From the NCBI GenBank assembly GCA_046351635.1, contig JAXLYC010000019.1, positions 46,035 through 110,034 of the forward strand: DNA of 64,000 bases, given 5' to 3'. Shown here piece after piece: positions 41,060 to 58,112 of the stretch. The notes under the pieces were generated by a model that was given only the letters and a program-made list of their open reading frames with translations, did not search any database and was not told where the DNA came from. The DNA comes from Nannocystaceae bacterium (GTDB lineage Bacteria; Myxococcota_A; Polyangia; Nannocystales; Nannocystaceae). Numbering within the stretch: position 1 is the stretch's first letter; each line of letters begins with the position of its first letter. The translations under genes and the position numbers were made by a program.

Positions 41060-42061
41060 TCACCGCGACTGGACCAGGTTCCAGCGATCCGCGACCAGCG
41101 GCTGCGACGGACCGGCGCCGCTCGAGAAGCTCCACTGCACCGCACCCTCACCGGCCGGGATCGCCTCGGCGCCCAGGCGCGGACCCGGATTCGGCGGGCT
41201 GTAGCCGTAGCCGCTGTCGTAGCCGCCGCCGTCGCTGTTGTAGCCGCCGTCGCTGTTGTAGCCGCCGTCGCTGCCGTAGCCGCCGTCGCTGCCGTAGCCG
41301 CCGGACTCGCCACCAGACTCGCCACCAGACTCGCCACCAGACTCGCCGCCAGACTCGCCGCCAGACTCGCCGCCAGACTCGCCGCCGGATTCGCCGCCAG
41401 ACTCACCGCCGGATTCGCCGCCAGACTCGCCGCCGGATTCGCCGCCAGACTCGCCGCCCGAGCCCTCGCTGCCCGAGCCGCTCATCGACTCCGACATGCC
41501 TTCGCCCTGGCTCTGCTTGTACCAGTCGTAGCAGAGCATCGCGGTGCCCGCGACGCCGACGGCACACTTGCCCCAATCGAACGGGTCGACCTTCTTCACG
41601 AACGCCTGCAGGCACTGGATGCCGGCACCGACGCCCGCGAGCCCGCACTTCGCTCCGGCACTGACCTCGCGGAAGCCCTGGGTGTTGCCGTCGGTGTAGA
41701 AGGCATGCAACGCGTCGGAGTCCGACAGCGTGTTCTCGACCAGCGAACCGTCTTCGCGCAGGGTCAGCGTGCCGGTGCTGGCACCCTCGGCCTCGATGGT
41801 CAGCGTGTCGTCGGTCGCGGACATCGTGAACACGACGACCGCGCCGTTGGAGCCGTCGATGCCCACGACCTGCATGGCCGCGCCGCCGATCGGCGTGATG
41901 TCCCAGCGCACGATGCCCAGCGAGGCGCGCGTCTGCTCCGACGCACCGACCAGCGCGATGCCGCTGCCATCACCCCCGTGATCTCGACCTGCCGCCGCGC
42001 ACCCCGAGATGCCGAGCGCAGCGAACACCACCATTGCCAGTTGCAACCGCGGACGTGCCAT
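41060..42061 (-). CDS. Lipoprotein with C-terminal low-complexity (GGES)13 and GGY(G/N)SD repeats
   Basis: ATG 42061 gives MARPRLQLAMVVFAALGISGC. A globular N-terminal ~230 aa is followed by SGGESGGESGG… and GGYGSDGGYGSDGGYNSDGGYNSD. Confidence 0.7.
   Translation of the reverse strand: MARPRLQLAMVVFAALGISGCAAAGRDHGGDGSGIALVGASEQTRASLGIVRWDITPIGGAAMQVVGIDGSNGAVVVFTMSATDDTLTIEAEGASTGTLTLREDGSLVENTLSDSDALHAFYTDGNTQGFREVSAGAKCGLAGVGAGIQCLQAFVKKVDPFDWGKCAVGVAGTAMLCYDWYKQSQGEGMSESMSGSGSEGSGGESGGESGGESGGESGGESGGESGGESGGESGGESGGESGGESGGESGGESGGYGSDGGYGSDGGYNSDGGYNSDGGGYDSGYGYSPPNPGPRLGAEAIPAGEGAVQWSFSSGAGPSQPLVADRWNLVQSR
41190..41460 (-). repeat. Perfect/near-perfect 12-nt tandem repeat (×13, encoding GGES) preceded by 18-nt repeats (×4)
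   Basis: On the plus strand the 12-nt unit is gactcgccacca / gactcgccgcca / gattcgccgcca, repeated 13 times across ~41303–41458. The 18-nt unit is gtagccgccgtcgctgtt/gcc, repeated 4 times across 41211–41285. Confidence 0.8.
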
Positions 42062-42194
42062 TGGATTTGCCCCACCCTTCGCGCACTGCCGTCGTGCGCG
42101 ACCTTCCTGTTCTACGTAGGGGTCCGGAGGTTCCCGACTCCGGTGCGGTTTTCTCGTGCGGCTCCGCGCCGGCCGCGGCAACGCCGCGCGCCCG

Positions 42195-42611
42195 CTACCA
42201 CGTGCCCGTGTTCGGCATCGACAGCCACGGCTCGCGGGGCGGCAGCGCCTCGCCGGCCTGCAGCAGCTCGATCGAGATCTCGTCCGGCGAGCGCACGAAC
42301 GCCATGCGACCGTCCCGTGGCGGGCGCAGGATCGTGACGCCGGCCTGCTGCAGGCGCTCGCACGCGGCGTAGATGTCGTCGACCTCGTAGGCGAGGTGGC
42401 CGAAGTTCCGCCCGCCGCCGTAGGGCTCGGTCTGATCCCAGTTGTGCGTGAGCTCGACCTCGGGCTGGCCCGGCGCGGTCGCGAGGAACACGAGCGTGAA
42501 GCGGCCGGCCTCGACGCGCTTGCGTCGGACCTCCTGCAAGCCGAGTACGCCGAAGAACTGCAGCGCGCGATCGAGGTCGAGGACCCGCAGCATCGTGTGG
42601 AGGTACTTCAC
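42195..42611 (-). CDS. gloA: Lactoylglutathione lyase (glyoxalase I)
   Basis: GTG 42611 gives (M)[24 protein letters not shown]…[49 protein letters not shown]. This is canonical GloA. Confidence 0.85.
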
Positions 42612-42634
42612 CGCTGCAGCGTACACCGCGGCGA

Positions 42635-43666
42635 TCACCCGCGGCGCGGCGGCGTCTCGGCGCGACGCGGGCGTCGGCGAAAAAGCGCGATCAGCAGCGC
42701 GAGCACGGCCTCGCCGCGACGAGACGCGAGCGTGGAGCTGCACGCACACGCGGGCGCAGCCGCCGGAGCCGCCGCCGCGCCGGCGCTCGCGCTGCTCGAA
42801 CCGCCCGGCGCACCGCTGTCGCTCGACGCACCGCCGTCGCTCGACGCGGTCACAGCCGCGGACGTACTGCCCGACTCGGTCTCGCCGCGCTCGCCCGAGC
42901 CCGAGTCACCGCCGCCCTCGCTGCTGCTCGCGCCGCCCGCAGCGTCGGCTTCGACGACCCACGCGATGCCGCCGGTGACGTGCGCGAGCCACTGCGGGTC
43001 CGCCCAGGCCTCGCTGGGATGTCCGCCGGCGGTGTAGAACACGCGCGCGCCCGCGAGCTCGTGGGTCCAGGCGATGGGATGATCGCGCCCCATCGTGCCG
43101 CCTTGGTACGTGCTCTCGTCGAGCTGCAGCAGCACGTCGACCTTGTCCGACGGGCTCGCGGTGAAGTTGTACCACTCGTCGAAGCGCGACCACGACTGCG
43201 GCAGACCGGCGCACGCCGGATGTCGCGGTGCGACCACATGCACGATCGCGTCCTGCGGCGCGGGGTGATCGACGAAGCGCGTGCCGATGAGCGTGCCGAA
43301 CCACGGCCAGCGCGTCTCGGCGTTGACGGTGGCGTGGATGCCGACGAAGCCGTGCCCGCCCTCGACGAAGGCCTGCAGTCCGGCCTGCTGCGCCTCGTCG
43401 AGCACGTCGCCGGTGTTCATGAGGAAGACCGCCGCGTCGATGTTCGCGAGCGTGCCGTCGGTGAACACCGCCGCGTCCTCGGTCGCCAGGATGGTCCAAT
43501 CGCGCGCCGCGGCCTGGTCCTGCAGCGCGGCGACGGCGGTGGGGATCGACGCGTGGCGATAGCCCGCGGTCTTCGAGAACAGCAGCAGCGAGGCGTCGGC
43601 GGCGGCCGCCCGCGCGAACCCGGGCACCGCCGCCAACCCTGCGAGCACTGCGAGCGACCGCCGCAT
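42635..43666 (-). CDS. ThuA-like (type-1 glutamine-amidotransferase-like fold) secreted protein with C-terminal MYXO-CTERM-like sorting tail
   Basis: ATG 43666 gives [23 protein letters not shown] (signal). GYRHASIP is the ThuA motif. The C-terminus has a Gly/Ser-rich spacer then [31 protein letters not shown], i.e. Cys pair + hydrophobic helix + Arg cluster. Confidence 0.75.
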
Positions 43667-43730
43667 CTGGCCACGGTAGCGCGGCCGCGCGGGCGCGACC
43701 ACCGGCTTGCCAACCGCAGCGCGGATCTCG

Positions 43731-44195
43731 ATGATCGCGGACGCCGTGGACCACGACCGCACCGCGCTGCGTCGCATCCTGCTGCAGACCCGCACCATCG
43801 CCGTGCTCGGCGCCCACTGGGAGCCCGACCGACCCGCGTGCTACGTGCCCGAGTACCTCGCCGAGGTCGGCTACCGCGTGCTCCCGGTCAACCCCGCGGG
43901 CGTGGGCCGCGAGGGCTTCGGCGCACGCTATGTCGCGCGGCTGACCGAGCTGGACGAGGCGGTCGACATGGTCGACGTGTTCCGGCGCTCGGCGCTGGTC
44001 GCCGATCACGTCGACGAGATCCTGGCGATGTCACCGCGACCCAAGGTCGTGTGGCTGCAACTGGGCGTGCGCAACGACGACGCGACCGCGCGCCTGCAGG
44101 CCGCCGGCATCGAGGTGGTGCAGGACCGCTGCACCCTGGCCGATCACCAGGCCCTGGGTCTGCCGCGGCGCTACGCGCCTTCTGCCTCGCGATAG
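43731..44195 (+). CDS. CoA-binding domain protein (YccU/YneT-like)
   Basis: ATG 43731 gives MIADAVDHDRTALRRILLQTRTIAVLGAHWEPDRPACYVPEYL, a Rossmann-like CoA-binding motif. Confidence 0.7.
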   Translation: MIADAVDHDRTALRRILLQTRTIAVLGAHWEPDRPACYVPEYLAEVGYRVLPVNPAGVGREGFGARYVARLTELDEAVDMVDVFRRSALVADHVDEILAMSPRPKVVWLQLGVRNDDATARLQAAGIEVVQDRCTLADHQALGLPRRYAPSASR

Positions 44196-44920
44196 GGGTC
44201 GCGGGCATCACCCAGCGCCATCAGTCCCCGCAGTTCGACGAGCACGGCTTCGCGCAGCGCCTGACCCTGCAGATCGCTGACGAGCAGCGCCCGCAATCGA
44301 TCGGCGCCGCGCACGACCGCGCGCGGCATCTCCGAGCTCTGCGTGAGCGACGAAGCGAGCTCGAAGATCTGCTGCAGCTCGGTGTCGCGCAACCGGCCGC
44401 GACCGCGCCACAACGCGGCCACGGTCGCATCGACGTCCTGCAGCCACCGCGGGCGATGCTCCCGGTGGTACTCCGCGCGCGGCATCGCGGGCGTGAACAA
44501 TGGCGGCAGCGAGGCCGCGACGAGGCCAAGTGGGATCTGCACCGCCCACGCAGCCAAGAAGCCGAGCACGCCGACGCCACAAGCGGTTCGCAGATCCCAG
44601 CTGATCTGCTCAGGCAGACCCAGCGCCACGGAGGTGCCGGCTGCCAGGCCTGCGAGCATCCCGATCGCCGCGGCCCAACCGACGACGCGGTTGCGGGGCA
44701 TCGCGCCGATCCACACCGACAGCGCTGTGCCAACAGCCAGGGTGGCCGCGGCCGCGAGCAGCGGCTGACCCGGCACGAACGCGCATCCCTTCGAGTGCAT
44801 GCACCCGCGCGCCGCCGGGCCCGGCAGCATCGTCGCCGCACCGGCGAGTGTCAGGCCCGTGAGCGCCACGACCCACGCCCGCCGCGAGATTCCGAACGCC
44901 GCGCGATCGAACTCCACCAT
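44171..44920 (-). CDS. Hypothetical membrane protein
   Basis: The 249 aa product has several hydrophobic helices in its N-terminal two thirds. It overlaps the convergent CoA-binding gene by 25 nt. Confidence 0.45.
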   Translation of the reverse strand: MVEFDRAAFGISRRAWVVALTGLTLAGAATMLPGPAARGCMHSKGCAFVPGQPLLAAAATLAVGTALSVWIGAMPRNRVVGWAAAIGMLAGLAAGTSVALGLPEQISWDLRTACGVGVLGFLAAWAVQIPLGLVAASLPPLFTPAMPRAEYHREHRPRWLQDVDATVAALWRGRGRLRDTELQQIFELASSLTQSSEMPRAVVRGADRLRALLVSDLQGQALREAVLVELRGLMALGDARDPYREAEGA

Positions 44921-44995
44921 GGCAGCGTGAACCCGCGCCCGCGTCGGTTCCTTTCGACGTCCGCACCGAGCGCGCCTGGAGTCAGCTCGGGCGCG

Positions 44996-45871
44996 TCACG
45001 CGAGCCGGTCGTGGAACCCGAGCACCGCCGCGAGCACCGCCGCCGGCGCCTCGATCTGGGGATAGTGCCCGACGCCGGGCAGCGGCGTCACCTCGGCGCG
45101 CGGCAGCAGCTCGCGCCAGCGCGCGATCATGTCCGCGCCCGAGACCGGATCCGCGGCGCCGTCGACGAACGCGAGCGGTACCGCGGTCTGCTGCAGCGCG
45201 CCGACCCAGCGCGACCGCTGCACCCGACGCTCGCGGATGTAGTCGATGAGCAACGGCAACACCCGGTGACCGTCGGCGTGGCGCAACAACGTCCACAGCT
45301 CGTCGACGAACTCGGGTGACGGCGGGGTCTCGCGTCCGAAGATCGCGTACAGCCCCCGCGCCAGGGTCCGACGCGAGCTCAACCGTGCGACGACCGGGCC
45401 CAGCGGCGTCGCGAGCAGCCGCTGGATCGGGCGCGGGTGATGGCACTCGGGGAACAGCCCGCCGTTGAGCATCACGCACGAGGCGATCGCGAGCCCGCCG
45501 CCGCGCCGCTGCTCGTGGCGCGCGAGCAGCTCCTGCGCCACGGTGTCACCGTAGTCGTGCGCGAGCAGGTGCACGCGCGCGACCGATCGCGCGGCGAGCA
45601 GCGCCTCGAGCCGGTCGGCCTGATCGAGGATCGAATAGCGGAACGGTCGCGGCTTGTCGGACCAGCCGAAGCCCAGCAGGTCCGGCGCGATCACGCGGAA
45701 GCGCTGCGTGAGCCCGGGCAGGATCGCGTGCCAGTCCCACGACGCGCTGGGGAAGCCGTGGATGGCCAGCAGCGCGTCGCCGCGACCGCGCTCGACCACG
45801 GCAATGGCGTGACCGCAGTGCTCGAAGCGCTGTCCCTCGCGACGCCAGGCCTCGAACGCGGCGGATCCCAC
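44996..45871 (-). CDS. Alpha/beta-fold hydrolase
   Basis: HGFPSASWDWHAI… and LLAHDYGDTVA form a nucleophile-elbow-like G-x-D-x-G variant. The C-terminal PGVGHYPQIE supplies the catalytic His. Confidence 0.8.
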   Translation of the reverse strand: MGSAAFEAWRREGQRFEHCGHAIAVVERGRGDALLAIHGFPSASWDWHAILPGLTQRFRVIAPDLLGFGWSDKPRPFRYSILDQADRLEALLAARSVARVHLLAHDYGDTVAQELLARHEQRRGGGLAIASCVMLNGGLFPECHHPRPIQRLLATPLGPVVARLSSRRTLARGLYAIFGRETPPSPEFVDELWTLLRHADGHRVLPLLIDYIRERRVQRSRWVGALQQTAVPLAFVDGAADPVSGADMIARWRELLPRAEVTPLPGVGHYPQIEAPAAVLAAVLGFHDRLA

Positions 45872-45904
45872 CGCGCGCAGCGTAGCGCACTCGTGCGGCG
45901 CCGA

Positions 45905-47245
45905 TCAGCCGGGGCAGAGCTCGCTGGGCTCGGCGTAGCCGTGGGTGATGAAGAAGATCGGGTGCCCCGGCGTGAATGCGCCCGAGGGCAGCACATCCCA
46001 GCTCATGCCGTCGGTGCTGCGCAGGAATCGCTGCTCGTCGTAGCCCAGCCAGACGTTGTTGACCGCGACCAGGGTGCCCTCGGGGCTGCGCGCGACCGGG
46101 CCGACGTCCTCGTCCGAAGCGATCGCCTCGGTCGTCCACGTGATGCCGTCGCTGCTGCGGTAGCGATTGCCCCAACCCCAGAACCAGAACTCCTCGCCGG
46201 TCCAGATGCCCGAGCTCGCGATGCGGCTGTCGGTGATGATGTGCGATTCCCAGCTCTGGCCGCCGTCGACCGAGCGACAGGCGTGACCGTCGCCGTCGGC
46301 CATCAGCAGCACGTCGTTGCCGCCGATGATGTCGCCGTAGGCACCGGGGCCCTCGCCGACGCAGTCGGCCGGGAAGCTGCTGGGTCGCCACCAGGTGTCG
46401 CCGGCATCGGAGCTGACCAGCACGTCCGCGCTGCTGTTGCCGCTGGCGTAGGCGACGAAGCGACCCTCGCCGCCGTAGCTGCCCCAACCGAAGCGACGCA
46501 CCGACCAGATCACGCCCTCGGTGCCCTCGAAGTCGGCCTCGGTCGTGGGCATCCACGTCGCACCATCGCTCGACACCTGCGGCGTGCGCGAGGCGACCAC
46601 GAAGCGGTTGCCGTCGAAGCGCAGGCCGCCGAAGCTGTCGTTGTCCAGGCCGACGGTCCAGTCGATGCCGTTGGTGCTCCACGACACCGCACCGGGCCAA
46701 CCCCAGCCCCACGTCGCGACGAAGACGCCGTTGCCGTAGGCGACGCCCTTGCTGAAGCCGGGGCTGTGACCGCAGTCGCACGCGTCCATGCTGCAGCTGC
46801 CGTCGTACCAGACCTGCGAACACGTCGCGCCGTCGTTGGCGCTGCAGTCGACCGGCGTGGTCGAGCCGCACAGGTGCACGTCGCCCTCGAGATCCCACGA
46901 GCGATCGCCGACCCACGTGAGCCCGTCGTCGCACGAGATCGTCGAGCGCCCGACCATGCCCTGGGCAACGAACACCGGCACGCCCTCGGGCACGCTGCCG
47001 GTGTCGCTGGAGCTGCCGCCCTCGTCGGTGGCGTCGGTGCCGACCGTACTCGACGCGGTCGTGCTCGCGGTCGTGCTGCTGCTCGCGGTGGTGCCCGCGG
47101 TCGTGCCCGCGGTGCCGCTGCCCTCGCCGCCCTCGCTGCTGCTGCCCTCGCCTGCGTCGCTCGATCCGCCCGTGCCCGAGCCGGACGACCCGCAGGCCAG
47201 TGCGAAACCGAGCAACACCAAGGGGGTCCGATGCGCGCGCGACAT
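45905..47245 (-). CDS. Secreted lipoprotein with Ser/Thr-rich linker and W-G-x-G repeat β-propeller-like domain (hypothetical)
   Basis: ATG 47245 gives MSRAHRTPLVLLGFALACGSSG. Repeats include WGWGWPG and FWFWGWGNRY. Confidence 0.7.
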   Translation of the reverse strand: MSRAHRTPLVLLGFALACGSSGSGTGGSSDAGEGSSSEGGEGSGTAGTTAGTTASSSTTASTTASSTVGTDATDEGGSSSDTGSVPEGVPVFVAQGMVGRSTISCDDGLTWVGDRSWDLEGDVHLCGSTTPVDCSANDGATCSQVWYDGSCSMDACDCGHSPGFSKGVAYGNGVFVATWGWGWPGAVSWSTNGIDWTVGLDNDSFGGLRFDGNRFVVASRTPQVSSDGATWMPTTEADFEGTEGVIWSVRRFGWGSYGGEGRFVAYASGNSSADVLVSSDAGDTWWRPSSFPADCVGEGPGAYGDIIGGNDVLLMADGDGHACRSVDGGQSWESHIITDSRIASSGIWTGEEFWFWGWGNRYRSSDGITWTTEAIASDEDVGPVARSPEGTLVAVNNVWLGYDEQRFLRSTDGMSWDVLPSGAFTPGHPIFFITHGYAEPSELCPG

Positions 47246-47352
47246 GCCGGACCCCCTTGGTAACCCGAGCGCGCCACTTGTCTCGCGGCGCCGCGAAAAC
47301 TCACCGCGCGGCGCCCGAGCTCGTGCACCGCGGCCGCTCGCGGACAACCCAC

Positions 47353-48102
47353 TCAGCTGGGGATGCCCGCGGCCTGCTCGAACGGCGCCTTGCTGATGCG
47401 CCACACGCCCACGAAGGGATGGTCGATGTCCCAGACCACGGCGCGGATCATCGTGAGCACCGCGGCCAGACACACGAACGCGGCGTGGCCCAGCTGCGGC
47501 TGGGCGCCCGGCGGCAACAGCAACAGCCCTGCGAGCAGCAGTGCGGACAGCAGCGCGAGCAGATGGTTCAGCGTCGCCGGCATGCGGTGCTTGGCCGCGC
47601 TCACGCGCGAGACCCGGCACTCGCGCAGGGCCGCGAGCGCATCGGACAGCCGCGCGTCGGCGGTGGGCCCGACGGTGGGCGTCGCCGCGAGCTCGGCCAC
47701 GCGCGCATCGAGGGCATCGAGCGCGGCGGTGGCCGCACGGCTCTCCTGCAGCGCCGCGAGCTCGTCCCACTCGGCCGCGGCCGCGGTGAGGTAGGTGCGC
47801 GTGGCCGACGCGACGCGGCGACGCGCGTCGTCCTGACCGGCGGCCAGCAGCGACGCGAGCCGCGGCAGCTCGGCCGCGAGGCTGCCCTCGCGCACGGTGA
47901 GCTTCTGCAGCGCATTGAACTGCTCCCACACCACGAAGATCACGAACGCCGTGAGCACGCTGTAGATGCCGCCGACGAGCTCGAGGAACGCTTCGAGCAT
48001 CGGCACGGCATCGTTGCGGATCCCGAGCATGTCGCTGGGCACCAGCAGGCACACCAGCGCCGCCGCCACGACCGCGAGCACGACCTTGACGTAGACACCC
48101 AT
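47353..48102 (-). CDS. Hypothetical 4-TM membrane protein (tentatively DUF4239-like)
   Basis: The 249 aa product has hydrophobic helices at both ends and a long amphipathic central region. Confidence 0.65.
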   Translation of the reverse strand: MGVYVKVVLAVVAAALVCLLVPSDMLGIRNDAVPMLEAFLELVGGIYSVLTAFVIFVVWEQFNALQKLTVREGSLAAELPRLASLLAAGQDDARRRVASATRTYLTAAAAEWDELAALQESRAATAALDALDARVAELAATPTVGPTADARLSDALAALRECRVSRVSAAKHRMPATLNHLLALLSALLLAGLLLLPPGAQPQLGHAAFVCLAAVLTMIRAVVWDIDHPFVGVWRISKAPFEQAAGIPS

Positions 48103-48191
48103 GGAGTTCGACCTCGTCGCAGCTCAACCCCGGGGCGCCGCGCCTCAATCCCAGCCGCGGCGGCGCCGCCACGGCGGCGCGCGGTGCCGGC

Positions 48192-48746
48192 TCACGGCGG
48201 GTCGTCGTGGCTGTGGATGCCCAAGCCGTCGGCGATGCGGTTGTAGTACGCGAACAGCGCGATCACCTGCACCGCGTGCGCGATCGCGGCGTCGCTCCAG
48301 CCGTGCCCGCGCAGGGCCGCGACGTCGGCGGGCTGGATCGCCGCCGGCGTGCGCGTCAGCCTGTCCGCGAACGCCACCAGCGCGGCCTCGGCCGGCGGCA
48401 GCGTCGGCGTCTCGCCACGCAGTAGCGCGTCGGCGATCGCGGGCGCATCGGGTCGGTGAGCGACCTCGGCACGGAGGTCGTCGGCGTGCGAGCGCAGTCA
48501 ATACTCGCACGCGTTGATCATCGACACGTACGACGCGAGCAGCTCTCGCTGCGCGCGGGACAGCGGCTCGTCGCGCGCGTGCATCAGCCGCAGGTACAGC
48601 TCGGTCGAGGCCTCGAGCACGCGCGGCTGCAGGCTCTGGATCCGGATCACCGCGAAGACCTTGCCGGCGCGGCGAACCGCCGCGTCGTACAGCCTGCGCA
48701 ACAAGCCCTCGGCGCGCTCGGGCGCGACGGTGTCGATGAACGGCAT
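48192..48746 (-). CDS. Carboxymuconolactone decarboxylase / AhpD-like family protein with in-frame UGA at the redox motif (candidate selenoprotein, C-E-Y-U-L-R-S-H)
   Basis: ATG 48746 gives MPFIDTVAPERAEG…YVSMINACEY-[TGA at 48500–48498]-LRSHADDLRAEVAH…HGWSDAAIAHAVQVIALFAYYNRIADGLGIHSHDDPP*. ORFs 48498..48887 and 48192..48377 are in the same frame, separated only by the TGA. A 9-bp stem/6-nt loop hairpin lies 15 nt downstream of the UGA. Confidence 0.6.
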
Positions 48747-48892
48747 GCCGCGATCGTACCCGCGTCGCGTGCGAGCCTTCCGCGCCGCCGTATTCATCGG
48801 CCGGGTGGCCACCGCGGCGCGGCCGTGACGACTGGCACGATCGCGGTCGCGGGCGGGCGAACCGTCGGGCACCCACGGGCGACCCACGGCGC

Positions 48893-49405
48893 ATGGTAGG
48901 TTCGTCGACGATCAGTTTCGCGTTGGCTCTGGGAGCGACCCTGGTGACGGTCGCTGCATCGGGGGTTCCCGGCACCTCGGCATCCGCCACCGACACGCCC
49001 GAGCTCGCGCTCGAGGTGGACACGGGCGAGGGCATGGCGGCGATGGCCGCATCGGAGAGCAGCGGCGGCATCGTGGATCCGCGGCCGAACGAAGGCGACA
49101 CCCGCAAGTGCTTCGTCGGATGGATCACGACCTCGCGCTCGGGCAGCAGCTGCACCGTGACGCTGTCCGCCAAGGTCGCGATGCAGACCAGCGTGTGCAC
49201 CAACCCGCCCAACCCGTACCCCAACCCCAACCCCACCACGCAGGCGTTCCTCGACGGCGGGCTCAAGCTGGAGACGCCCGGCTGCTCGGTGACGTCGGCG
49301 ACCAAAGGCAAGGACACGGTGATCAGCTGCAACCCCTGCCCCAGCGAGATCACGATGACCGTCAACGCCGACGGCGGTCGCCGCGTCACCTTGCCGTTGC
49401 CGTGA
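48893..49405 (+). CDS. Hypothetical secreted protein (170 aa)
   Basis: ATG 48893 gives MVGSSTISFALALGATLVTVAASG, a signal peptide. The mature part is Cys-containing and Ser/Thr-rich. Confidence 0.5.
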   Translation: MVGSSTISFALALGATLVTVAASGVPGTSASATDTPELALEVDTGEGMAAMAASESSGGIVDPRPNEGDTRKCFVGWITTSRSGSSCTVTLSAKVAMQTSVCTNPPNPYPNPNPTTQAFLDGGLKLETPGCSVTSATKGKDTVISCNPCPSEITMTVNADGGRRVTLPLP

Positions 49406-49447
49406 GCCGTCCTCGCCCTCGATCACGTCACCCGGAGTGCACCGCCC

Positions 49448-50167
49448 ATGTCGATCCCCGAACGTCGTGAGACCGCAATCCTCGTCCCGGTCGCCCATCA
49501 CATCGAACCGCTGTGCGAGGCCGGTCTGACCGAGCTCGAGCGCATGGGCTACCCGGTGTTCCGCGTGCGCGGGCACTCGGACATCGCGCGCGGGCGCAGC
49601 CAGATGGCGACCCAGGCGCTCGAGCAGGGTCATCGCGCGCTCATGTGGATCGACGCCGACATGATGTTCGTGCCCGAGGACGTCGACCGCTTCCGCCAGG
49701 GCGAGCACGCCCTGGTCGGCGGCGTGTACCCGGTCAAGGGCCAGCGGCGGCTGACGATGCGACCGCTGCCGGGCACCACCGAGCTGATGTTCGGCGAACA
49801 AGGTGACGTGGTCGAGGTGCTCTACCTCGCGACCGGCTTTCTCTACAGCCGCGCCGAGGTCTACGCCGACGTGCAGCGGCGGCTGGAGCTGCCGCGTTGC
49901 GGCACCGACCCGACCGACGCCGCGATCCCGTTCTTCCTCTCGGTCGTGGCCAACGACGGCGGCACGCCGACGTACCTCAGCGAGGATTTCTCGTTCTGCT
50001 ACCGCGCGCGCGTGGCCGGCCACCGCGTCATGGCCGACACGCGCGTGCGGCTGGGCCACATCGGCAGCTACGTCTACACCGTCGAGGATGCGGGTCGCGA
50101 GCGGGTGCTGCACCCGAGCTTCCGCTTCCGCCTGCTCGACGAGCACGACACCCTGCCGGGTCAGTAG
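49448..50167 (+). CDS. Putative glycosyltransferase (GT-A-like, D-x-D)
   Basis: LMWIDADMMFVPEDVDRF contains the D-A-D motif. The C-terminal region is …TPTYLSEDFSFCYRARVAGHRVMADTRVRLGHIG. Confidence 0.5.
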   Translation: MSIPERRETAILVPVAHHIEPLCEAGLTELERMGYPVFRVRGHSDIARGRSQMATQALEQGHRALMWIDADMMFVPEDVDRFRQGEHALVGGVYPVKGQRRLTMRPLPGTTELMFGEQGDVVEVLYLATGFLYSRAEVYADVQRRLELPRCGTDPTDAAIPFFLSVVANDGGTPTYLSEDFSFCYRARVAGHRVMADTRVRLGHIGSYVYTVEDAGRERVLHPSFRFRLLDEHDTLPGQ

Positions 50168-51175
50168 CTGCTCGCGTCGAGCCTGACCTTGCCGCGGAAG
50201 ATCCAGTAGACGATCACGGTGTAGCTCGCGACCAGCGGCATGCCCAGGATCGCGATCCACAGCATGCGCCCGAGCGTGCCGTCCGAGGCCGCGGCCGCGT
50301 GCAGCTCGAGGCTCCATGCCGGGTCGAGGCTCGAGTGCACGAGGTTGGGGTACAGCGCCAGCGCGACCAGCGACGTCATCGCCGCGATGGTGCAGCACGA
50401 CGACACGAACGCCATGCCGCTGCGGCCGGCCGCGATCGCGCGGGGATGTTGGCGATCGCGAGCACGTGCAGCGCCACCAGCAGCCACGCCGCGGGCCAGC
50501 GTTGCAGCGCCGCAGTCGCGTGCGGATCGCGAACACGGCGCCCAGCGTCACGCCGAGCCACGCGAGCACGAAGACTGCGAAGCTGCGCCACATCCAGCCG
50601 CGCACGCGCTGTTGCAGCGCGCCCTCGGTCTTGAGGTGCAGGTAGATGCTGCCGTGCATGGCCGCGGTCGCGAGCGCGAGCACGCCGACCGCCACTGGGT
50701 AGGGCCGCAGCAGATCCGACAGCGTGCCGCGGTACTCGCCGCCGGGGCCCAGCGGCACGCCCTGCACGATGTTGCCCAGCAGCAGCCCGAACGCGAAGGT
50801 GGCGCTGGCGCTCGAGACGAAGAACGAGCCGTCCCACCACGCGCGCCAGCGCGGGTGATCGAGCTTGCTGCGGAACTCCAGCGAGATCGCGCGGCCGATG
50901 AGCGCGAAGAGCACCAGCATCACCGGCAGGTAGAAGCCCGAGAACAGCGCCGCGTAGGCCTGCGGGAACGCGCCGAACAGCGCGCCGCCGAAGGTCACCA
51001 GCCACACCTCGTTGCCGTCCCACAGCGGCCCGATGCTGTTGAGCGCGAGCCGTCGCTGGGTCTCGTCGCGCAGCCACACGTGCACGATGCCGACGCCGAA
51101 GTCGAAGCCGTCGAGGATCGCGTAGCCCATCAGCAGCACGCCGAGCAGGCCGAACCACACCAGCGGCAGGTCCAT
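50161..51175 (-). CDS. cydB: Cytochrome bd ubiquinol oxidase subunit II; two apparent 1-nt frameshifts near 50555–50565 and 50435–50445
   Basis: ATG 51175 overlaps the cydA TGA (TGATG). Frame A reads [31 protein letters not shown]…AVFAIRTR. A third frame then reads …ALQRWPAAWLLVALHVLAIANIP. The last frame (ORF 50161..50487) gives the canonical C-terminus …SLVALALYPNLVHSSLDPAWSLELHAAAASDGTLGRMLWIAILGMPLVASYTVIVYWIFRGKV. Confidence 0.75.
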
Positions 51176-52629
51176 CACGCGCCCCCGTCGTCGCGGCGCG
51201 GGCGCTCGCCGGCGGTGAGCGACTCGCCGCCGTGGCCCATGCCGACCTCGACCGCGGCCCGCACCAGCGAGCGCGCCGCGGCGGGCTCGTGGCCCTCGCC
51301 CGGCAGCGTCGGGCCGTGACGGATCTTCTCGTTGACCACCACCAGCCACAGCACGAACAGCGCGAAGTAGATCAGGCCAAACCCCAGCAGCGAGGCGAGC
51401 ACGTGCTCGGGCGCGACCGTGTGCGAGACCGCGTCGGCGGTGCGCAGCAGGCCGTAGACCACCCACGGCTGGCGCCCGACCTCGGCTGCGACCCAGCCGG
51501 CCTGGTTGGCGGCGTAGGGACCCAGCACCGCGACGACGAAGATCCACAGCAGCCAGCGCTGCGTGAACAGGCGCCCGCGCCACCACAGCACCGCCGCGAG
51601 CGTGGTCAGGCCCACGAACGCCATGCCCAGCGCGATCATCACGTGGTACGCGAGAAACGGCACCACCACCGGCGGTCGCTCGTCGGGCGGGATGCGATCG
51701 AGTCCGGTGACCGGCTCGCGCAGGTTGCCCTTGACCAGCAAGCTCAGCATGCCCGGGATCGCGACGCCGCCGCGCACGGTCTGGGCCTCGACGTCGGGCC
51801 AGCCCACGACGAAGAGCGGCGTGGGCCCCTCGCCGGTCTCGAAGTGGCCCTCGAACGCGGCGAGCTTGGCCGGCTGGTGCTCCGCGATCATCTCGGCTTG
51901 CGCGTGACCCGAGAGCAGCTCGGCCCATGACGCCAGCGTCGCGACCACCAGGCCCGCGCCGAAGCTGCGGCGCGCGAGCTCGGCGTGGCGGCCGCGCAGC
52001 AGGTACCACGCGCTGATGCTCATGACGAAGAAGCCGCCGAGCACGAACGCGCCCAGCAGCACGTGCCCGAGTCGGTGCATCGACGACGGGCTGAAGACCA
52101 TGGCCCAGAAGTCGACCACCTCCACGCGCACGACGCCGTCGTGCTCGACCAGGCGGTGACCCGCCGGGGTCTGCTGCCACGAGTTGGCGATGATGATCCA
52201 CACCGCCGAGAAGGTCGATCCGAGGAAGACCATCACGGTGGCGAAGAAGTGCGTGCGACGGCCGACGCGATCCCAACCGAACACCAACACCGCGAGGAAG
52301 CCCGACTCGAGGAAGAACGCGAAGATGCCCTCGGCTGCCAAGGCCGAGCCGAACACGTCGCCGACGAAGCGCGAGTACGCGGCCCAGTTGGTGCCGAACT
52401 GGAACTCCATCACGATGCCGCTGGCGACGCCGACGGCGAAGTTCACCGCGAAGATGCGGGTCCAGAAGCGCGCCAGCGCCTCGTCGCGCGGGTCGCCGCG
52501 CCGCAGCGCCCGACCCTCGATCACCACCATCACCAGTCCCAGGCCGATCGACAGCGGCGGGAACAGGTAGTGGAACATCACCGTGAAGGCGAACTGGATC
52601 CGCGACAGCAGTACGACGTCGAGGTCCAT
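51175..52629 (-). CDS. cydA: Cytochrome bd ubiquinol oxidase subunit I
   Basis: [32 protein letters not shown]…, the Q-loop region, and …[14 protein letters not shown] are all present. The product is 484 aa. Confidence 0.9.
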
Positions 52630-52683
52630 CGTCGTGGCCCTGGGGTCAGGCGAATGCCTCGTGGTCCGCCATGCTCACCCCGG

Positions 52684-53742
52684 TCAACGATCGAACAGCC
52701 CCTCGAGTTTCTCCGTGCGCGGGCCCTTGGCGTCGCACACGGCGAAGCTGCCGCCGTCGAACAGCGCTGCGCCGCCGTAGCGGCCCTGCTTGTCGACCGC
52801 GTAGTAGTTCACGTTGAAGTCGGGCTTGCCGTCCGCGCGCAGCAATCGCGGCGCGCGCGTGCTCTCGACGATGCGCTTGCACGCGGCCAGGCACGCGTCC
52901 TTGGGGTGCTTGCCCGCGCGCATGAACTCGACCACGGTGTGGCTGCCGGCGGTGACGATGTTGGCTTCGCCTCGTCCGGTGCTGCCGGCCGCGCCGACGC
53001 CGTTGTCGACGAACAGGCCCGCACCGACCAGGGGGCTGTCGCCGACGCGACCAGGGATCTTGAACGCGAGCCCGCTGGTGGTGGTCACGCCCGCGAGGTT
53101 GCCGTCGCGATCGACCGCGCAGCAGTTGATGGTGCCGGTGATGCCGAAGAAGGCCTTCACGTTGGCGGGCACGTCCTTGCCGGTCTTGGGCAACCAGTCG
53201 TCTTTGTCCGACATGGTCGACTTCCAGTACAGCCAGATCTCGCGTGCCTCGGGCGTGAGCAGCTCCTGCTCGACGAAACCGTGGGCACGGGCGAAGGCCC
53301 GCGCGCCCTCGCCCGCGAGCAGCACGTGGTCGGTGTAGCGCATCACCGCGAGCGCGACCTGGCTGGGGTTTCTGATCCGACGCAGCGAGCACACCGCGCC
53401 GGCGAGCCCGCTCTTGCCGTCCATGACCGAGGCGTCGAGCTCGACCTCGCCGTCCTCGTTGGGCAACCCGCCGAGCCCGACGCTGTGATCGCTGGGGTCG
53501 TCCTCGACCAAGGTCACGCCGGCGACGACCGCGTCGACCGCCGGCGTGCCTGCGAGGATCTTCTCCAGCGCCGTCTGCACGCACGCGGGGTGACCATTGG
53601 CCGACGCGACCACGACCGGGTGTTTGGGCGTGCGCAACACCGTCGGCGCGGCCGCGCTACCCGACTTGGGCGCGACCAGACAGCCCGAGCCGAGCATCAT
53701 CGTGGATCGGAGCAGGAAGCCACGGCGGCGCAGTCTCGGCAT
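52684..53742 (-). CDS. Isoaspartyl peptidase / L-asparaginase (Ntn-hydrolase, glycosylasparaginase-like) with twin-arginine signal peptide
   Basis: ATG 53742 gives MPRLRRRGFLLRSTMMLGSGCLVAPKS (RRxGFLL Tat motif); a GTG at 53760 is possible. The Ntn-hydrolase region includes FFGITGTINCCAVD and GAAGSTGRGE. Confidence 0.8.
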   Translation of the reverse strand: MPRLRRRGFLLRSTMMLGSGCLVAPKSGSAAAPTVLRTPKHPVVVASANGHPACVQTALEKILAGTPAVDAVVAGVTLVEDDPSDHSVGLGGLPNEDGEVELDASVMDGKSGLAGAVCSLRRIRNPSQVALAVMRYTDHVLLAGEGARAFARAHGFVEQELLTPEAREIWLYWKSTMSDKDDWLPKTGKDVPANVKAFFGITGTINCCAVDRDGNLAGVTTTSGLAFKIPGRVGDSPLVGAGLFVDNGVGAAGSTGRGEANIVTAGSHTVVEFMRAGKHPKDACLAACKRIVESTRAPRLLRADGKPDFNVNYYAVDKQGRYGGAALFDGGSFAVCDAKGPRTEKLEGLFDR

Positions 53743-53778
53743 CGCGTCGAACTGTGCCACAAACCGCGATCGGCCGCG

Positions 53779-56709
53779 TCATCCGCCGACCAGGCCGATG
53801 TCGCCACCGCGCTCGCGCAGCCAGGTCTCGTACTCGCGCTCGGACTCCGCGACGCTCGCGGCATCACCCAGGCCGGCGTCGCGCAGGGTCGTCAACGCGC
53901 GGCGGCCGAGCTTCAGCGCGCGGTCGCGCGCGTCGGCGTCGTCGCCCCGCGCCTGCCACAGCGCCCGCGCGAGCGTGAAGTAGGTCAGGCTCATCTCGCC
54001 GGCGTCGAAGTCCTTGCCCTCGCGCAGCGCCAGCGCGCGCTCGGCCATGGGCAGGGCCTCGGCGGCGCGCTCGAGCCCGAGCAGCGCGCGGGCCTTGCCG
54101 AGGTACTCGTACGCGAGACTGGGATGATCGTCGCCCAGTGCCTCGCGCTCGATCGCGATGGCGCGGTCGTAGCGCGAGAGCGCCTCGTCGAAGCGACCGC
54201 GCTCGAGCAGCACGTTGGCGCCGTTGGTCAGCGGCACCGCGATGCGCGGGTGGGTCGCGCCATAGCGGGCCTCGTAGATGCGCCCGACCTCGTCGTAGTG
54301 CGCGAGCGCGCCGTCGAGGTCGTGCTCGGCGTGCGCGACGGTGCCGAGGTGGTTGTGCGCGACGCCGACGTAGGGATGGTCGCGGCCGAGCCGCTTCTCG
54401 AAGATCGCAAGCGCGCGCTCGCCGTGCTCGCGCGCGGGCCCGAGCTCGAGCTGACCATACTCGAGCACTGCGAGGTTGATGAGCGACTCGCCGACCGCTC
54501 GCGCGTCGGGGCCCAGGCCCTGCTCGCGCACGCGCACGGACTCGAGATACAGCGTGCGCGCGCGCTCGACCTCGCCGAGCTCGACCGCATCGCGCGCGAG
54601 GTTGGCCATGTCCGCGCCGATCGACGGGTGCTTGCTGCCGTAGACCGCCAGCGCGAGATCATAGGCTTGCTGGTGGGCCTCGAGGGCGTCGCGATAGCGG
54701 CCCAGGGCGTAGAGCGTGTTGCCGTAGTTCGCGAACAACACCACCCGCACGCTGTCGTCGCCGCTGCCGGCCTGTGCCAACGCGAGCGCGCGCTCGTGGT
54801 GGGCCAGTGCCTGGTCGGGCTTGCCTGCGTCGACGTAGACCGTCGCGAGCACCGACTCGTAGCGGCGCACGAGCTCGTCGGGCTCGCCGGCCGCGGCGAT
54901 CTCGAGCTCGATCGGCAGCACCAGCGCGAGCGCCTCGGCCGGCTTGGCCTGCTCGCTGCCGAGCGTGAACATCAGCTCGATCCACGCCTCGGCGGCGTCG
55001 TGGTGCATCTGCGCCGGCACCAGCTGTCGCAGCGCGGCGCGCAGGCTCTGCTCGGCGGCCGCAGCGTCGCCGGTGCGGTGCTGCATCTGCCCCTGCACCG
55101 TGAGCACGCGGCCGCGCAGCCACGGCACCTCGAGCTCGCCCAGCTCGGACAGCGCCGCCGCGGTCGCGGCGATGCCCTGGTGGTAGCGCCCGGCGTCGTT
55201 GCGCGCGTCCGCGATCGCGAGCAATCGCGAGGCCGCGTCGACGCGTGCGCGGTCGTCCTCGTCGAGCTCGCCGACCGGCCGCGCGACCGGGTCGCGGCAG
55301 TCCTGCGCCGGTGGCAGCCGCCGCACCGCGCTCTCGGCCCGCAGCGCCAGCTCGTCGTCGACCTGCTCGAGCTCCGCCAGCAGTCCGTCGAGATGATCGC
55401 GCCGGTCCTGTAGGCAGCGCATGCGCGCGTCGAGGCGCTCGTCCGATTGCTCGCCGCGCACGTGGGTCGCCGCGCACGCGTCGATGAACATCTCGCGCCA
55501 CGACGCGACCGCGGCGTCGATGCGCGTCACCTGCTCCGACCACACCTCCGCCGCCCGCGGCACCTGCGTGCGCGCGAAGGCCTCGGCGATGGCATCGCTG
55601 CGCTCGCTGTTCCACACCGCCTCGATCTCGTCGGCGCCGCGATCGCACCGCCGCATCGACGGATCCCACAGCGACTGCGCGGTCACGGCCGCGGCCAGGG
55701 TCGTCACGACGAAACCGATGCCGATCACCGCCCGCCGCGTGCGCGCGGGGTCGTGCTCCAGCACGCCCAGCAACGCGGCCATCGACGGGTGCCGTGCGGC
55801 CGGATCGAGCTGCAGCCCGCGCAGCACCGCATGGCGCACGCGCCCGGGCACACCGCTGCGCGGCGGCTCGCGCACGCGGCCGCTGCCCACGGCCTCGGCC
55901 AGCGCCGCGACCGAGTCGGCCTCGAACGGACGCTGGCCCCACAGGCCCTCGTACAGCGCGACGCAGAAGCTGAACTGATCGCTCCACGAGCCGGTCGCGC
56001 CGGGGCGCCCCGAGCTCGCGGCACCGAATTGCTCGGGCGCCATGTAGCGCGGCGTGCCGGCGAACGCGACCGTGTCGGTGCGATCGAGCTTGCCGTCGGC
56101 GGTGCTGGCGATCTCGTCCGCGCTCTCGCGCGCGAGTCCGAAGTCGGTCACGAGTACGCGCTGGACCGTGCCGTCGGGTCCCAGCGCGAGCATGACGTTG
56201 TCGGGCTTGAAGTCGCGATGGACCAGGTCGACCGCATGCGCGGCCGCGAGCCCGCGCCCGGCCTGCAGGTACACCGCGAGCACCTCGCGCCAGCTGCGTG
56301 GTGCCGCCGCGAGCCAGGCCTTGATGGTCGTGCCCTGCACGAACTCCATCGCGATGAACGTGCGCTGCTCGTGCACGCCGACGTCGTGCACCGCGACGAC
56401 GTTGGGATGGGTCAGCCGCGCCATCGCCTGGGCCTCGCGCAGCATCCGGCCGCGGCCCTGGGTGTCGACCGAGCGCGCGCGCGAGAGCAGCTTGAGCGCG
56501 ACCCGGCGGTCGAGCTGGGGGTCGTAGGCGGCATAGACCTCGCCCATGCCGCCCACACCGACGCGCTGCAGCACGACGTAGCGCGAGATCACCGTGCCCC
56601 GCGCCAGCTCGTCGTCGGGACCGGCCGCCTCACCGCTGCCGGAGACCGTCTGCTGGTTGCTGGGCACCAGCGTGGGGTCTTCGGCGAGTCGGCGGGGTTG
56701 GGCAGTCAT
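53779..56709 (-). CDS. Ser/Thr protein kinase with C-terminal TPR repeat region (intact paralogue of the 33938..36929 kinase)
   Basis: The kinase motifs are VGVGGMGEVYAAYD, VALK, HRDFKPDNVML, DFGLA and GTPRYMAPEQ. They are followed by a TM-like segment and ~600 aa of TPR-like helices. The start is taken at ATG 56709; upstream ATGs at 56751/56814 are possible. Confidence 0.8.
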   Translation of the reverse strand: MTAQPRRLAEDPTLVPSNQQTVSGSGEAAGPDDELARGTVISRYVVLQRVGVGGMGEVYAAYDPQLDRRVALKLLSRARSVDTQGRGRMLREAQAMARLTHPNVVAVHDVGVHEQRTFIAMEFVQGTTIKAWLAAAPRSWREVLAVYLQAGRGLAAAHAVDLVHRDFKPDNVMLALGPDGTVQRVLVTDFGLARESADEIASTADGKLDRTDTVAFAGTPRYMAPEQFGAASSGRPGATGSWSDQFSFCVALYEGLWGQRPFEADSVAALAEAVGSGRVREPPRSGVPGRVRHAVLRGLQLDPAARHPSMAALLGVLEHDPARTRRAVIGIGFVVTTLAAAVTAQSLWDPSMRRCDRGADEIEAVWNSERSDAIAEAFARTQVPRAAEVWSEQVTRIDAAVASWREMFIDACAATHVRGEQSDERLDARMRCLQDRRDHLDGLLAELEQVDDELALRAESAVRRLPPAQDCRDPVARPVGELDEDDRARVDAASRLLAIADARNDAGRYHQGIAATAAALSELGELEVPWLRGRVLTVQGQMQHRTGDAAAAEQSLRAALRQLVPAQMHHDAAEAWIELMFTLGSEQAKPAEALALVLPIELEIAAAGEPDELVRRYESVLATVYVDAGKPDQALAHHERALALAQAGSGDDSVRVVLFANYGNTLYALGRYRDALEAHQQAYDLALAVYGSKHPSIGADMANLARDAVELGEVERARTLYLESVRVREQGLGPDARAVGESLINLAVLEYGQLELGPAREHGERALAIFEKRLGRDHPYVGVAHNHLGTVAHAEHDLDGALAHYDEVGRIYEARYGATHPRIAVPLTNGANVLLERGRFDEALSRYDRAIAIEREALGDDHPSLAYEYLGKARALLGLERAAEALPMAERALALREGKDFDAGEMSLTYFTLARALWQARGDDADARDRALKLGRRALTTLRDAGLGDAASVAESEREYETWLRERGGDIGLVGG

Positions 56710-56924
56710 CGTTTCGCGGCATGCGTCGCGGCGCGACGGACCAGCGGCCATTGTATCAGCGCGGTCGCGGGCCCAAGGCGGCGTGGGCCCCACCGGACGG
56801 CTGTCCTTGCGCATCGCGTGAGCAAGCTCGCCGCTCGTTCAGTCGACATTGGTGCCGCGCGCCGTCGACACGCGCGCACGCGCGGGCCTACGCTCCGCGC
56901 GCCACTCGAACGAAAGGGCTCCGA

Positions 56925-58112
56925 ATGCGTCTCGCCTTGTCCACCCTCGTGCTCTGTGCCCTCGCGACCGCGTGCGAACAGCAGCAGCAGCCGACCAACA
57001 ACCCCGAGCCCGTCGCGGCGGCCCCGGCCAAGCCGGTCAAGCCGATCCCGGAGAACTTCTTCGCGGTCACGCCGCAGCTGACCGTCGTGGGCGTCGACAC
57101 TGCGGTCGACTTCTACGTCAAGGCGCTGGGCGCCCAGAAGCTCTTCTCGCTGCCGGGTCCCGACGGCACGACGATCCATGCCGAGGTCAAGATCGGCGAC
57201 TCGATCGTGATGATCGACGAGCAGAACCTCGAGCAGGGCGCGAAGGCGCCGACGACCCTGGGCGGCACACCGGCCACGCTCATGGTCTACGTGCCCGATG
57301 CCGATGCGGCGTTCGCCACCGCCGTCGCGGCCGGCGCGACCGCGGAGCGCCCCATCGAGGAGCAGTTCTGGGGTGACCGCTACGGTCAGCTCATCGACCC
57401 CGCGGGTCACCGCTGGGCGCTCGCGACCCACGTCGAGGATCTCACGCCCGAGCAGATGCAGCAGCGCGGCGCGATCGTGATGGCCGAGATGGACCCCAAG
57501 GCCAAGAAGAAGAAGAAGAAGGCCAAGAAGGGCGCGCCACCGGCATGGAAGGCGATCGCGGGCACGCCCGCGACCGCACCGGTGCCGCCGCCGTACCACA
57601 CCGTCACGGTCGCGCTGACCACCGACGATGCCGCCAAGGCCATCGAGTTCTACAAGACCGCGCTGGGCGCGACCGAGCGCGACCGCATGGTCGATCCCAG
57701 CGGCAAGATCATGCACGCGGAGCTCGCGATCGGCGACTCGTTCCTGATGCTCAGCGACGAGTACCCGGCGATGGGCAGCAAGGCCGCCAAGACCCTCGGC
57801 GGCTCGCCGGTCGCGTTGATGTTCTACACCGAGGATGTCGACGCGGCGTACGCGAAGGCCACCGGCGCGGGCGCGACCGCGGCGTTGCCGGTCGCGGACA
57901 TGTTCTGGGGTGATCGCTACGGCGCCGTGCTCGACGCGGCCGGGTACCTGTGGGGCATCGCCACGCACAAGGAAGACCTGACGCCCGAGCAGATCGCCGA
58001 GCGTGCGAAGGCCGCGATGCCGGCCGCCGCCGCGCCGACCGAGGCTGCGCCCGCGGGCGATGCGGCCGCGGCGACGCCGGCCGCGACCCCGGCCGCGCCG
58101 CCGGCGGGCTGA
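56925..58112 (+). CDS. Lipoprotein with two tandem VOC (glyoxalase/bleomycin-resistance, PhnB-like) domains joined by a poly-Lys linker
   Basis: ATG 56925 has AAGGG upstream and gives MRLALSTLVLCALATAC. Two copies of …FY(V)KALGA…IHAE(L)…IGDS…M…DE…FWGDRYG…D.AG..W… are present. The linker is KAKKKKKKAKKG, encoded by (aag)6 at 57504–57521. Confidence 0.8.
   Translation: MRLALSTLVLCALATACEQQQQPTNNPEPVAAAPAKPVKPIPENFFAVTPQLTVVGVDTAVDFYVKALGAQKLFSLPGPDGTTIHAEVKIGDSIVMIDEQNLEQGAKAPTTLGGTPATLMVYVPDADAAFATAVAAGATAERPIEEQFWGDRYGQLIDPAGHRWALATHVEDLTPEQMQQRGAIVMAEMDPKAKKKKKKAKKGAPPAWKAIAGTPATAPVPPPYHTVTVALTTDDAAKAIEFYKTALGATERDRMVDPSGKIMHAELAIGDSFLMLSDEYPAMGSKAAKTLGGSPVALMFYTEDVDAAYAKATGAGATAALPVADMFWGDRYGAVLDAAGYLWGIATHKEDLTPEQIAERAKAAMPAAAAPTEAAPAGDAAAATPAATPAAPPAG

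Follow-up and report, generated by a model that had tools for sequence, protein, structure and literature searches.

Does a minus-strand reading frame of 184 codons, interrupted once by an in-frame TGA, encode one protein or two? The question is raised by a gene of the AhpD family in a stretch of 64,000 nucleotides (hereafter the window) on contig JAXLYC010000019.1 of a Nannocystaceae bacterium, which an initial annotation, made from the letters alone, had put forward as a candidate selenoprotein gene. We consider it very probable that the locus encodes a single AhpD-like selenoprotein of 184 residues, in which UGA-83 is recoded as selenocysteine (Sec) by means of a selenocysteine insertion sequence (SECIS) hairpin located directly 3' of it.

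The frame is open on the minus strand from 48746 to 48192, and the TGA at 48500..48498 is the sole interruption in its translation. The list of open reading frames (ORFs) contained two pieces, 48498..48887 and 48192..48377, and the stretch between them is also open in the same frame; that the two are parted only by this TGA, as the initial annotation had stated, is confirmed by the sequence. Around the stop triplet the minus-strand translation reads ...YVSMINACEY-[TGA]-LRSHADDLRAEV..., and the predicted product is a protein of ~20 kDa with a single Sec. The start was placed at the ATG at 48746 (MPFI...), in agreement with the homologues (MPFI/MPWI) and with the gene call on record. The GTG at 48887, where the mechanically derived ORF begins, was rejected as a start on the same two grounds. 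The DNA of the window has ~72% G+C, and TGA is the predominant ordinary stop codon among its genes. In the whole 64 kb, only two TGAs carry a codon-position G+C signal on both sides, namely 48500..48498 and a gene boundary at 45907. The latter (45905-45907, minus strand) was rejected as a recoding site, being the ordinary stop of a 446-aa gene with an alpha/beta hydrolase gene in the same frame 34 nt further on, and the scan for in-frame TGAs with a two-sided coding signal found no second selenoprotein gene in the window. A scan of 47200-49500 for promoters and terminators found none, as is expected for a high-G+C genome that does not follow the sigma70 consensus.

For the profile searches, Cys was placed at the TGA. 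The product then matches the NCBIfam family TIGR01926 'peroxidase-related enzyme' with 123.4 bits (cutoff 81.8), residues 3-181 being aligned to profile positions 2-177 of 178, and it also matches the carboxymuconolactone decarboxylase (CMD) domain of Pfam (PF02627). This full-length match, together with the lack of indels in the four genomes compared below, bears out the earlier statement that the frame remains family-like on both sides of the UGA. The best PDB matches are the AhpD-like structures 6K40 (E 8.6e-22), 2OYO, 3C1L, 2PFX and 2PRR (the weakest at 1.5e-11), and in the alignments with 6K40, 2OYO and 3C1L position 83 is matched by the second Cys in the motif C-x-Y-C-x-x-x-H (CVYC/CLYC/CYYC), which is where the initial annotation had located it. 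E68, C80, Y82 and H87 are invariant among the relatives (alignment A1), and the spacing of E68/C80/Y82/U83/H87 equals that of the proton-relay residues described for PA0269 (Glu36/Cys48/Tyr50/Cys51/His55) and for the AhpD of Mycobacterium tuberculosis (Glu118/Cys130/His132/Cys133/His137) (PMC3141380). As judged from its sequence, the predicted product belongs to the AhpD-like selenoprotein family (TIGR01926 / COG2128, CxxU), all defining features that were examined being in agreement.

Other members of the superfamily were tried and rejected. Canonical AhpD (TIGR00777) reaches only 21.7 bits against a cutoff of 191.95 and there is no coupling to ahpC, no ahpC or other peroxiredoxin gene being present among the window ORFs scanned. 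For the model NF041238 AhpD_rel_CFYUT the score of 70.6 bits is below the cutoff of 175, only profile positions 175-335 of 357 being matched, and the score of the YciW-related model is likewise under its cutoff. With regard to gamma-carboxymuconolactone decarboxylase (PcaC), the CMD domain is present, yet the protein has the CxxU/proton-relay center and no pca-type context is found in the window; the AhpD-like and gamma-CMD groups are treated as separate families (PMC3141380).

Conservation of the UGA was assessed by a scan of GTDB r232 with one genome per species and a five-sequence alignment as the query, which retrieved 552 relatives, of which the best 80 were analyzed. In these closest relatives the aligned codon is TGA in 80 of 80 cases (79 found by regular expression and one, L066, by inspection), and the tblastn matches reach across residues 1-177 or further. 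The best 80 cover at least eight phyla, among them Acidobacteriota, Planctomycetota, Chloroflexota, Gemmatimonadota, Latescibacterota, Zixibacteria, Actinomycetota and Myxococcota. Closest are two Nannocystaceae metagenome-assembled genomes (MAGs), L003 and L004, with 82% and 77% identity, and the cultured carriers are Enhygromyxa salina SWB007 (L011) and Nannocystaceae ST9 (L043). The possibility raised at the outset that close relatives might carry TGC or TGT at this position was thus answered in the negative. The same holds for a misread base: at least 23 independent assemblies, drawn from NCBI MAGs, ENA and Logan, contain an identical 82-residue N-terminal ORF that ends with the TGA, and for this reason the TGA, including its A, is not an assembly error.

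The organism itself is represented more than once in public data. Positions 41261-58102 of the window are 99.73% identical, with few small indels, to the 27-kb contig CAZDHJ010000112.1 (L001) of MAG GCA_964505145.1, and a second population is represented by GCA_019694555.1 (L084), with a DNA identity of 87-90% but an identical N-terminal half of the selenoprotein. The organism also recurs in SRR14610232, SRR14610240, SRR14610249, SRR17659557, SRR17659558, SRR14932510, SRR1027651, ERZ27268159 and ERZ27268160.

Within the Nannocystaceae lineage, the window was compared with L084, L003 and L004 by the Nei-Gojobori method over the reading frame downstream of the UGA. Neither an indel nor a stop occurs in the 101 codons after the UGA in any of these four genomes, and substitutions are mostly at third positions. 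The ratio dN/dS is 0.31-0.44 over these 101 codons, which is similar to the 0-0.36 of the upstream half. Such values point to purifying selection on the frame 3' of the UGA, that is, to its translation.

The initial annotation had described a hairpin at 48458-48482 starting 15 nt after the UGA, with a 9-bp stem, a 1-nt bulge and the loop CGUGCC, and this structure is reproduced by RNAfold: the arms GACGACCUC and GAGGUCG-C-UC enclose the loop. Taken as a single sequence, the hairpin folds only weakly better than chance in DNA of 72% G+C. Its significance derives instead from its conservation in 80 of 80 relatives. The corresponding ungapped alignment of the UGA and hairpin region (A4) was folded with RNAalifold, which independently predicts a 7-bp stem with the loop CGKGCY; in the window, the stem arms lie at 48480..48474 and 48467..48461 and the 6-nt apical loop at 48473..48468, starting 24 nt past the UGA. 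Only these upper 7 bp are conserved; the two pairs beneath them are not kept across A4 and, like the bulge, are specific to the lineage. Paired cells make up 97.3% of the alignment at these positions versus 19-45% in controls with a slid 3' arm, both sides have changed in 16 cells, and none of 500 shuffles comes up to the observed values.

The conserved core overlaps the codons of D90-L-R-A-E-V95, and the bases of this segment are consequently read both as RNA and as protein. One pair has changed from C-G to U-A in five species from three phyla (L018, L029, L042, L053 and L082), through a silent change of Asp GAC to GAT in the 5' arm and a change of Val GUC to Ile AUC in the 3' arm; the RNA pair is thus restored, at the price of a Val-to-Ile substitution. 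Compensatory changes in A4 also include other pair types. Codon usage within the hairpin departs from the background of the same genes, with CTC for Leu in 78 of 80 sequences (39% in the background), GAG for Glu in all 80 (69%) and GCG for Ala in only two (37%), while Arg is encoded by CGT in 39 and by CGG in 41 sequences and never by CGC, which accounts for 53% of the background. We read this synonymous-site bias as selection on the RNA itself.

The hairpin can be compared with the published model of bacterial SECIS elements, in which a loop of 3-9 nt is carried by an upper stem of 4-16 bp, a G sits at the first or second loop position and is usually followed by G or U, the distance from UGA to loop is 16-37 nt and the folding energy is -7.5 kcal/mol or lower (PMC13188914). 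Here the loop has 6 nt, the stem 7-9 bp, the spacing is 24 nt and the energy lies between -10.5 and -11.6 kcal/mol. The loop G stands at position 2 and is followed by U, and the third base of the Arg codon, which is only ever G or U, corresponds to 'G[G|U]' in this model. For a covariance model (R1), 77 relatives were used, with the window, L003 and L004 left out. It finds the UGA and SECIS unit of the window with high significance (Table 1), and its next best match on both strands of the 64 kb reaches only 13.1 bits. The hairpin described as SECIS-like has therefore proved to be conserved, covarying, unique in the window and in agreement with the bacterial model. All testable parts of the initial interpretation are supported in this way, apart from one remark on taxonomic distribution that is taken up below.

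These observations can be arranged into a mechanism. A ribosome would reach UGA-83, where the hairpin 24 nt downstream (counted to its loop) would act as a bacterial SECIS; it would recruit SelB-GTP-Sec-tRNA(Sec), and Sec would be inserted without termination. The recoding part of this scheme is well supported by the comparative sequence evidence, and we infer that Sec is actually inserted at codon 83. The product would be an all-helical thiol/selenol oxidoreductase with U83 in place of the second Cys of CxxC, seated in the Glu68/Cys80/Tyr82/Sec83/His87 proton-relay arrangement of AhpD-like proteins. Cys80 and Sec83 would cycle between the selenol/thiol and selenenylsulfide states and thereby reduce peroxides or an oxidized peroxiredoxin-type partner. 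We infer this chemistry, including the physiological substrate, by homology.

Several results weigh against a selenoprotein at this locus. The uniformity of TGA in the 80 relatives is partly a matter of ascertainment, because the relatives were retrieved with two peptide patterns, one of which, [AS]HA[HD]DLRAE, is encoded by the SECIS region itself and favors Sec-type relatives. At 42% identity or less, relatives of Cys type (P0006 and the PDB homologues) and of Ser type (P0009, P0011 and P0013) do exist. The single-sequence fold has a z-score of only -1.78, with an equally good fold in 8 of 200 shuffles; because of the shared ancestry of the 80 sequences, the shuffle counts and codon frequencies from the alignment overstate independence. 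The commonest bacterial SECIS loop pattern includes an optional N1-N2 base-pair detail that the present loop does not follow. Rfam returned neither a SECIS nor any other family, either for the whole window at the gathering threshold or for the locus at E values up to 10, although nothing follows from this null, since Rfam does not model bacterial SECIS elements of the present type. Finally, the Sec machinery was not met with. ARAGORN found no tRNA in the 64-kb window and only ordinary tRNAs, without a tRNA-Sec, in 60 related loci; no sel gene was identified by Pfam among ~40 window ORFs or in the precomputed Pfam annotation of the overlapping contig; and SelA, SelB and SelD of Escherichia coli gave no tblastn match (E 1e-3), either in the window or in the regions flanking the gene in the 80 relatives.

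The last of these results bears on the possibility that the locus is a relic, in which the lineage has lost its Sec machinery, UGA terminates translation and the gene yields no more than an 82-residue fragment or no useful product. That no sel gene or tRNA-Sec lies in the window or in the flanks scanned is compatible with such a loss, as is the comparison of the window with L084, in which ~15 non-synonymous changes fall in the C-terminal half and none in the N-terminal half. A relic would nevertheless hardly be expected to keep the UGA, an intact hairpin and an open downstream frame in four genomes of the Nannocystaceae lineage that differ by up to ~17% of their nucleotides. The downstream dN/dS is not above the upstream value in most pairs, and the family-invariant C-terminal residues are all retained. 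Moreover, six selenoprotein genes are listed for Plesiocystis pacifica SIR-1, which is in culture and belongs to the Nannocystaceae (Peng et al., 2016, Supplementary Table S2), and this supports the view that the present organism, too, would have the Sec-decoding trait (selABCD) elsewhere in its genome. We regard a relic as improbable.

Even less probable is a split gene, in which the UGA is a true stop, the C-terminal part is separately re-initiated and the two pieces assemble. This is how gene callers present the locus, since the recorded calls in the assemblies of this organism (L001, L083-L092) consist of 82 aa followed by a 'hypothetical protein' of 61 or 77 aa, and some relatives have GTG, ATG or a codon similar to TTG directly behind the UGA, so that database entries start there. 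The codon at this place is, however, CTG in the window and mostly a non-start across relatives (ACC, ATC, GTC, AGG, CGA, GCT and others), and this variability argues against two separately translated polypeptides. The next in-frame start lies 41 codons further on and its use would remove His87 and a conserved helix, the break would fall within the CxxC active-site turn, and a split gene would leave the synonymous-site selection on the hairpin unexplained.

A third possibility is that the UGA is read through without Sec, either by near-cognate insertion of Trp or Cys or under a reassigned code such as codes 4 and 25. Full-length entries of relatives from the pipelines of the Joint Genome Institute (JGI) do show W or G at position 83 (CHYW, CPYW, CFYW and CFYG), but these residues stem from the code chosen by the gene caller and are UGA translated under genetic code 4 or 25. 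Reassignment is ruled out by the ordinary use of TGA as the predominant stop in the window. The position corresponds to the catalytic Cys of the Cys-type homologues, where Trp or Gly would kill the redox center, and the conserved hairpin, the G[G/U] loop and the SECIS spacing are a specific signature of SelB-dependent recoding. Non-Sec readthrough is thus very unlikely. A mistake in sequencing or assembly, or a recently acquired nonsense mutation (a pseudogene), would give the same picture in one assembly through a single-base change of TGC or TGT to TGA, but is effectively refuted by the recurrence of the same ORF end in assemblies from several sequencing projects, by the TGA of all closest species and by purifying selection on both sides of the UGA.

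The coordinates of the features of the AhpD-like selenoprotein gene are collected in Table 1.

Table 1. Features of the predicted AhpD-like selenoprotein gene, in window coordinates.
Feature	Position	Strand	Basis or remark
Complete selenoprotein coding sequence (predicted)	48192..48746	-	ATG 48746..48744; Sec-UGA = codon 83; terminal TGA 48194..48192
In-frame UGA, putative Sec codon (U83)	48498..48500	-	Replaces the second Cys of the CxxC motif
Redox motif C80-E-Y82-U83-L-R-S-H87 (CxxUxxxH)	48486..48509	-	Codons at the active site
Glu68 of the proton-relay set	48543..48545	-	12 residues before the first Cys
Reading frame 3' of the UGA, codons 84-184	48192..48497	-	Translated only upon UGA recoding
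UGA and SECIS unit	48450..48500	-	Covariance model R1, 57.4 bits, E ~7e-18
Full hairpin, 9 bp with bulged C at 48460	48458..48482	-	RNAfold, -11.6 kcal/mol
SECIS core, 7-bp stem CGACCUC/GAGGUCG	48461..48480	-	RNAalifold (80 sequences), hairpin-only -10.5 kcal/mol

The family to which we assign the gene has been known for a long time. The 'AhpD-like protein' (COG2128, CxxU) was reported as a new selenoprotein family with 27 sequences in the Sargasso Sea data (Zhang, Fomenko & Gladyshev, 2005; PMC1088965), and 'AhpD-like 1' ranked fourth in abundance among prokaryotic selenoprotein families in the Global Ocean Sampling (GOS) data, with 299 sequences (PMC2398784). A review table of 2026 lists the 'AhpD-like protein' under TIGR01926 with CxxU and one Sec (PMC13188914), and BSepDB takes it as an example family. 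The initial annotation was accordingly right that AhpD-like selenoproteins occur in other bacteria, but not that they are mainly deltaproteobacterial, given their occurrence in Sargasso Sea metagenomes and in many phyla. The window copy shares with the family the hidden Markov model, CxxU, a SECIS directly 3' of the UGA, a single Sec and a length of ~180-200 residues. Nothing essential differs, except that it comes from a high-G+C Nannocystaceae-like myxobacterium and not from marine plankton. Other CxxU proteins, such as those of NF041238, the CMD-like PF02627 CxxU group and NF041047, a distant AhpD homologue, share the CMD/AhpD superfamily and the motif.

The Cys-type homologues are represented by DR1765 of Deinococcus radiodurans (6K40), 2OYO, 3C1L, 2PFX and 2PRR, which align over nearly the full length and share C-x-Y-C-x-x-x-H, but have Cys at the second position and only moderate identity to the window protein. 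They are also without the segment that encodes both DLRAEV and the SECIS, and read ...GAALREF... in its place. A DR1765 deletion mutant is sensitive to H2O2 and its complementation needs the CxxC cysteines, as summarized in a later paper (PMC8945050, citing Zhao et al., 2020), and a weak peroxidase activity has been described for PA0269 (PMC3141380). The AhpD of M. tuberculosis (TIGR00777), which reduces AhpC in a lipoamide/SucB-dependent manner, agrees with the window protein in the helix-turn-helix active-site motif and in the proton-relay set; the window protein differs from it in chain topology, in length and in having Tyr for His132.

As for the RNA element, the SECIS of the fdhF/fdnG type in E. 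coli is likewise a stem-loop within the coding sequence 3' of the UGA, with a small loop in which G precedes G or U and a spacing of 16-37 nt, but its primary sequence is unrelated to that of the window hairpin. A conserved sequence is generally said to be missing from bacterial SECIS elements, whereas the AhpD-like element is almost invariant across phyla. This rigid keeping of the SECIS/DLRAEV sequence is the sole mildly unusual aspect of the locus. It can be speculated that the Sec-type clade of TIGR01926 has one nearly invariant SECIS (GACCUC-CGKGCY-GAGGUC) doubling as D-L-R-A-E-V in at least eight phyla, from Myxococcota to Chloroflexota, with a single origin, a wide spread and rigid dual coding, a proposal for and against which we hold the chances to be even. 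If it is true, such rigidity would contrast with the usual statement on bacterial SECIS elements, and a family-specific covariance model could repair thousands of split or mistranslated database entries.

Apart from the JGI translations, other database entries of the family are halves that stop at ...C-E/H-Y, or sequences of ~100 aa (~30 of them) that start right after the UGA. Public collections thus hold AhpD-like selenoproteins in mostly damaged form (P0001, P0002, P0003, P0004, P0005, P0007 and P0022, in addition to these ~100-aa entries). Some taxon labels also drew attention. The MAGs L031, L045 ('uncultured Klebsiella sp.') and L067 ('Singulisphaera sp. GP187') have the same active-site segment, TSSVNHCLY-U-RRSHAHDLRAE, as the Roseiflexaceae MAGs L032, L034 and L038, and their labels look wrong, or the contigs look mis-binned. 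The label of the 'Bifidobacteriaceae' MAG L049 is doubtful on taxonomic grounds only, its active-site segment being different.

We contend that the locus is a genuine selenoprotein gene that joins a long-known family and that the recorded gene calls have split in two. Its main value is for annotation, as it adds a selenoprotein to a Nannocystaceae-like myxobacterium, and a selenoprotein gene implies that the organism would have the Sec-decoding trait and need selenium. AhpD-like proteins are among the most abundant bacterial selenoprotein families, and experiments could make use of two cultured carriers, Enhygromyxa salina SWB007 and Nannocystaceae ST9. The dual-coding SECIS illustrates how one set of bases can be constrained as RNA and as protein at once, and leaves the current understanding unchanged.

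The gene neighborhood was compared by all-against-all clustering of the ORFs of 81 loci, and no conserved neighbor gene was found beyond small clades of at most nine loci; genomic context therefore gives no clue to a redox partner or substrate. On the same strand, 89 nt downstream of the selenoprotein gene, lies a bestrophin-like gene of 249 aa (PF14023; 47353-48102, minus strand). This pairing is kept in the sister population (L084 and L086) but not in other phyla, and the bestrophin-like gene is probably not a functional partner.

Further away, the window contains several genes of separate interest. A 259-aa protein at 28002-28781 (minus strand) matches Lipid_desat (PF10520) with 132.9 bits, which we take to be the CarF/TMEM189 plasmanylethanolamine desaturase family. 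Myxobacterial plasmalogen genes have been linked to the eukaryotic pathway (PNAS, 2026; PMC13012113). At 30735-33266 (minus strand), an 843-aa major vault protein (MVP) homologue is encoded, with MVP_shoulder (89.6 bits) and Vault_3 domains; bacterial MVP homologues, some of them in Myxococcota, have been described (bioRxiv 10.1101/872010). Two further genes can be called 'eukaryote-like', namely one at 28837-30105 (minus strand) for a 422-aa protein with three uromodulin-type D8C domains, and one at 58236-59699 (plus strand) for a PHM/DBH-like copper type II ascorbate-dependent monooxygenase of 487 aa with N and C domains, the N-terminus of which gives a weak cytochrome c-like match.

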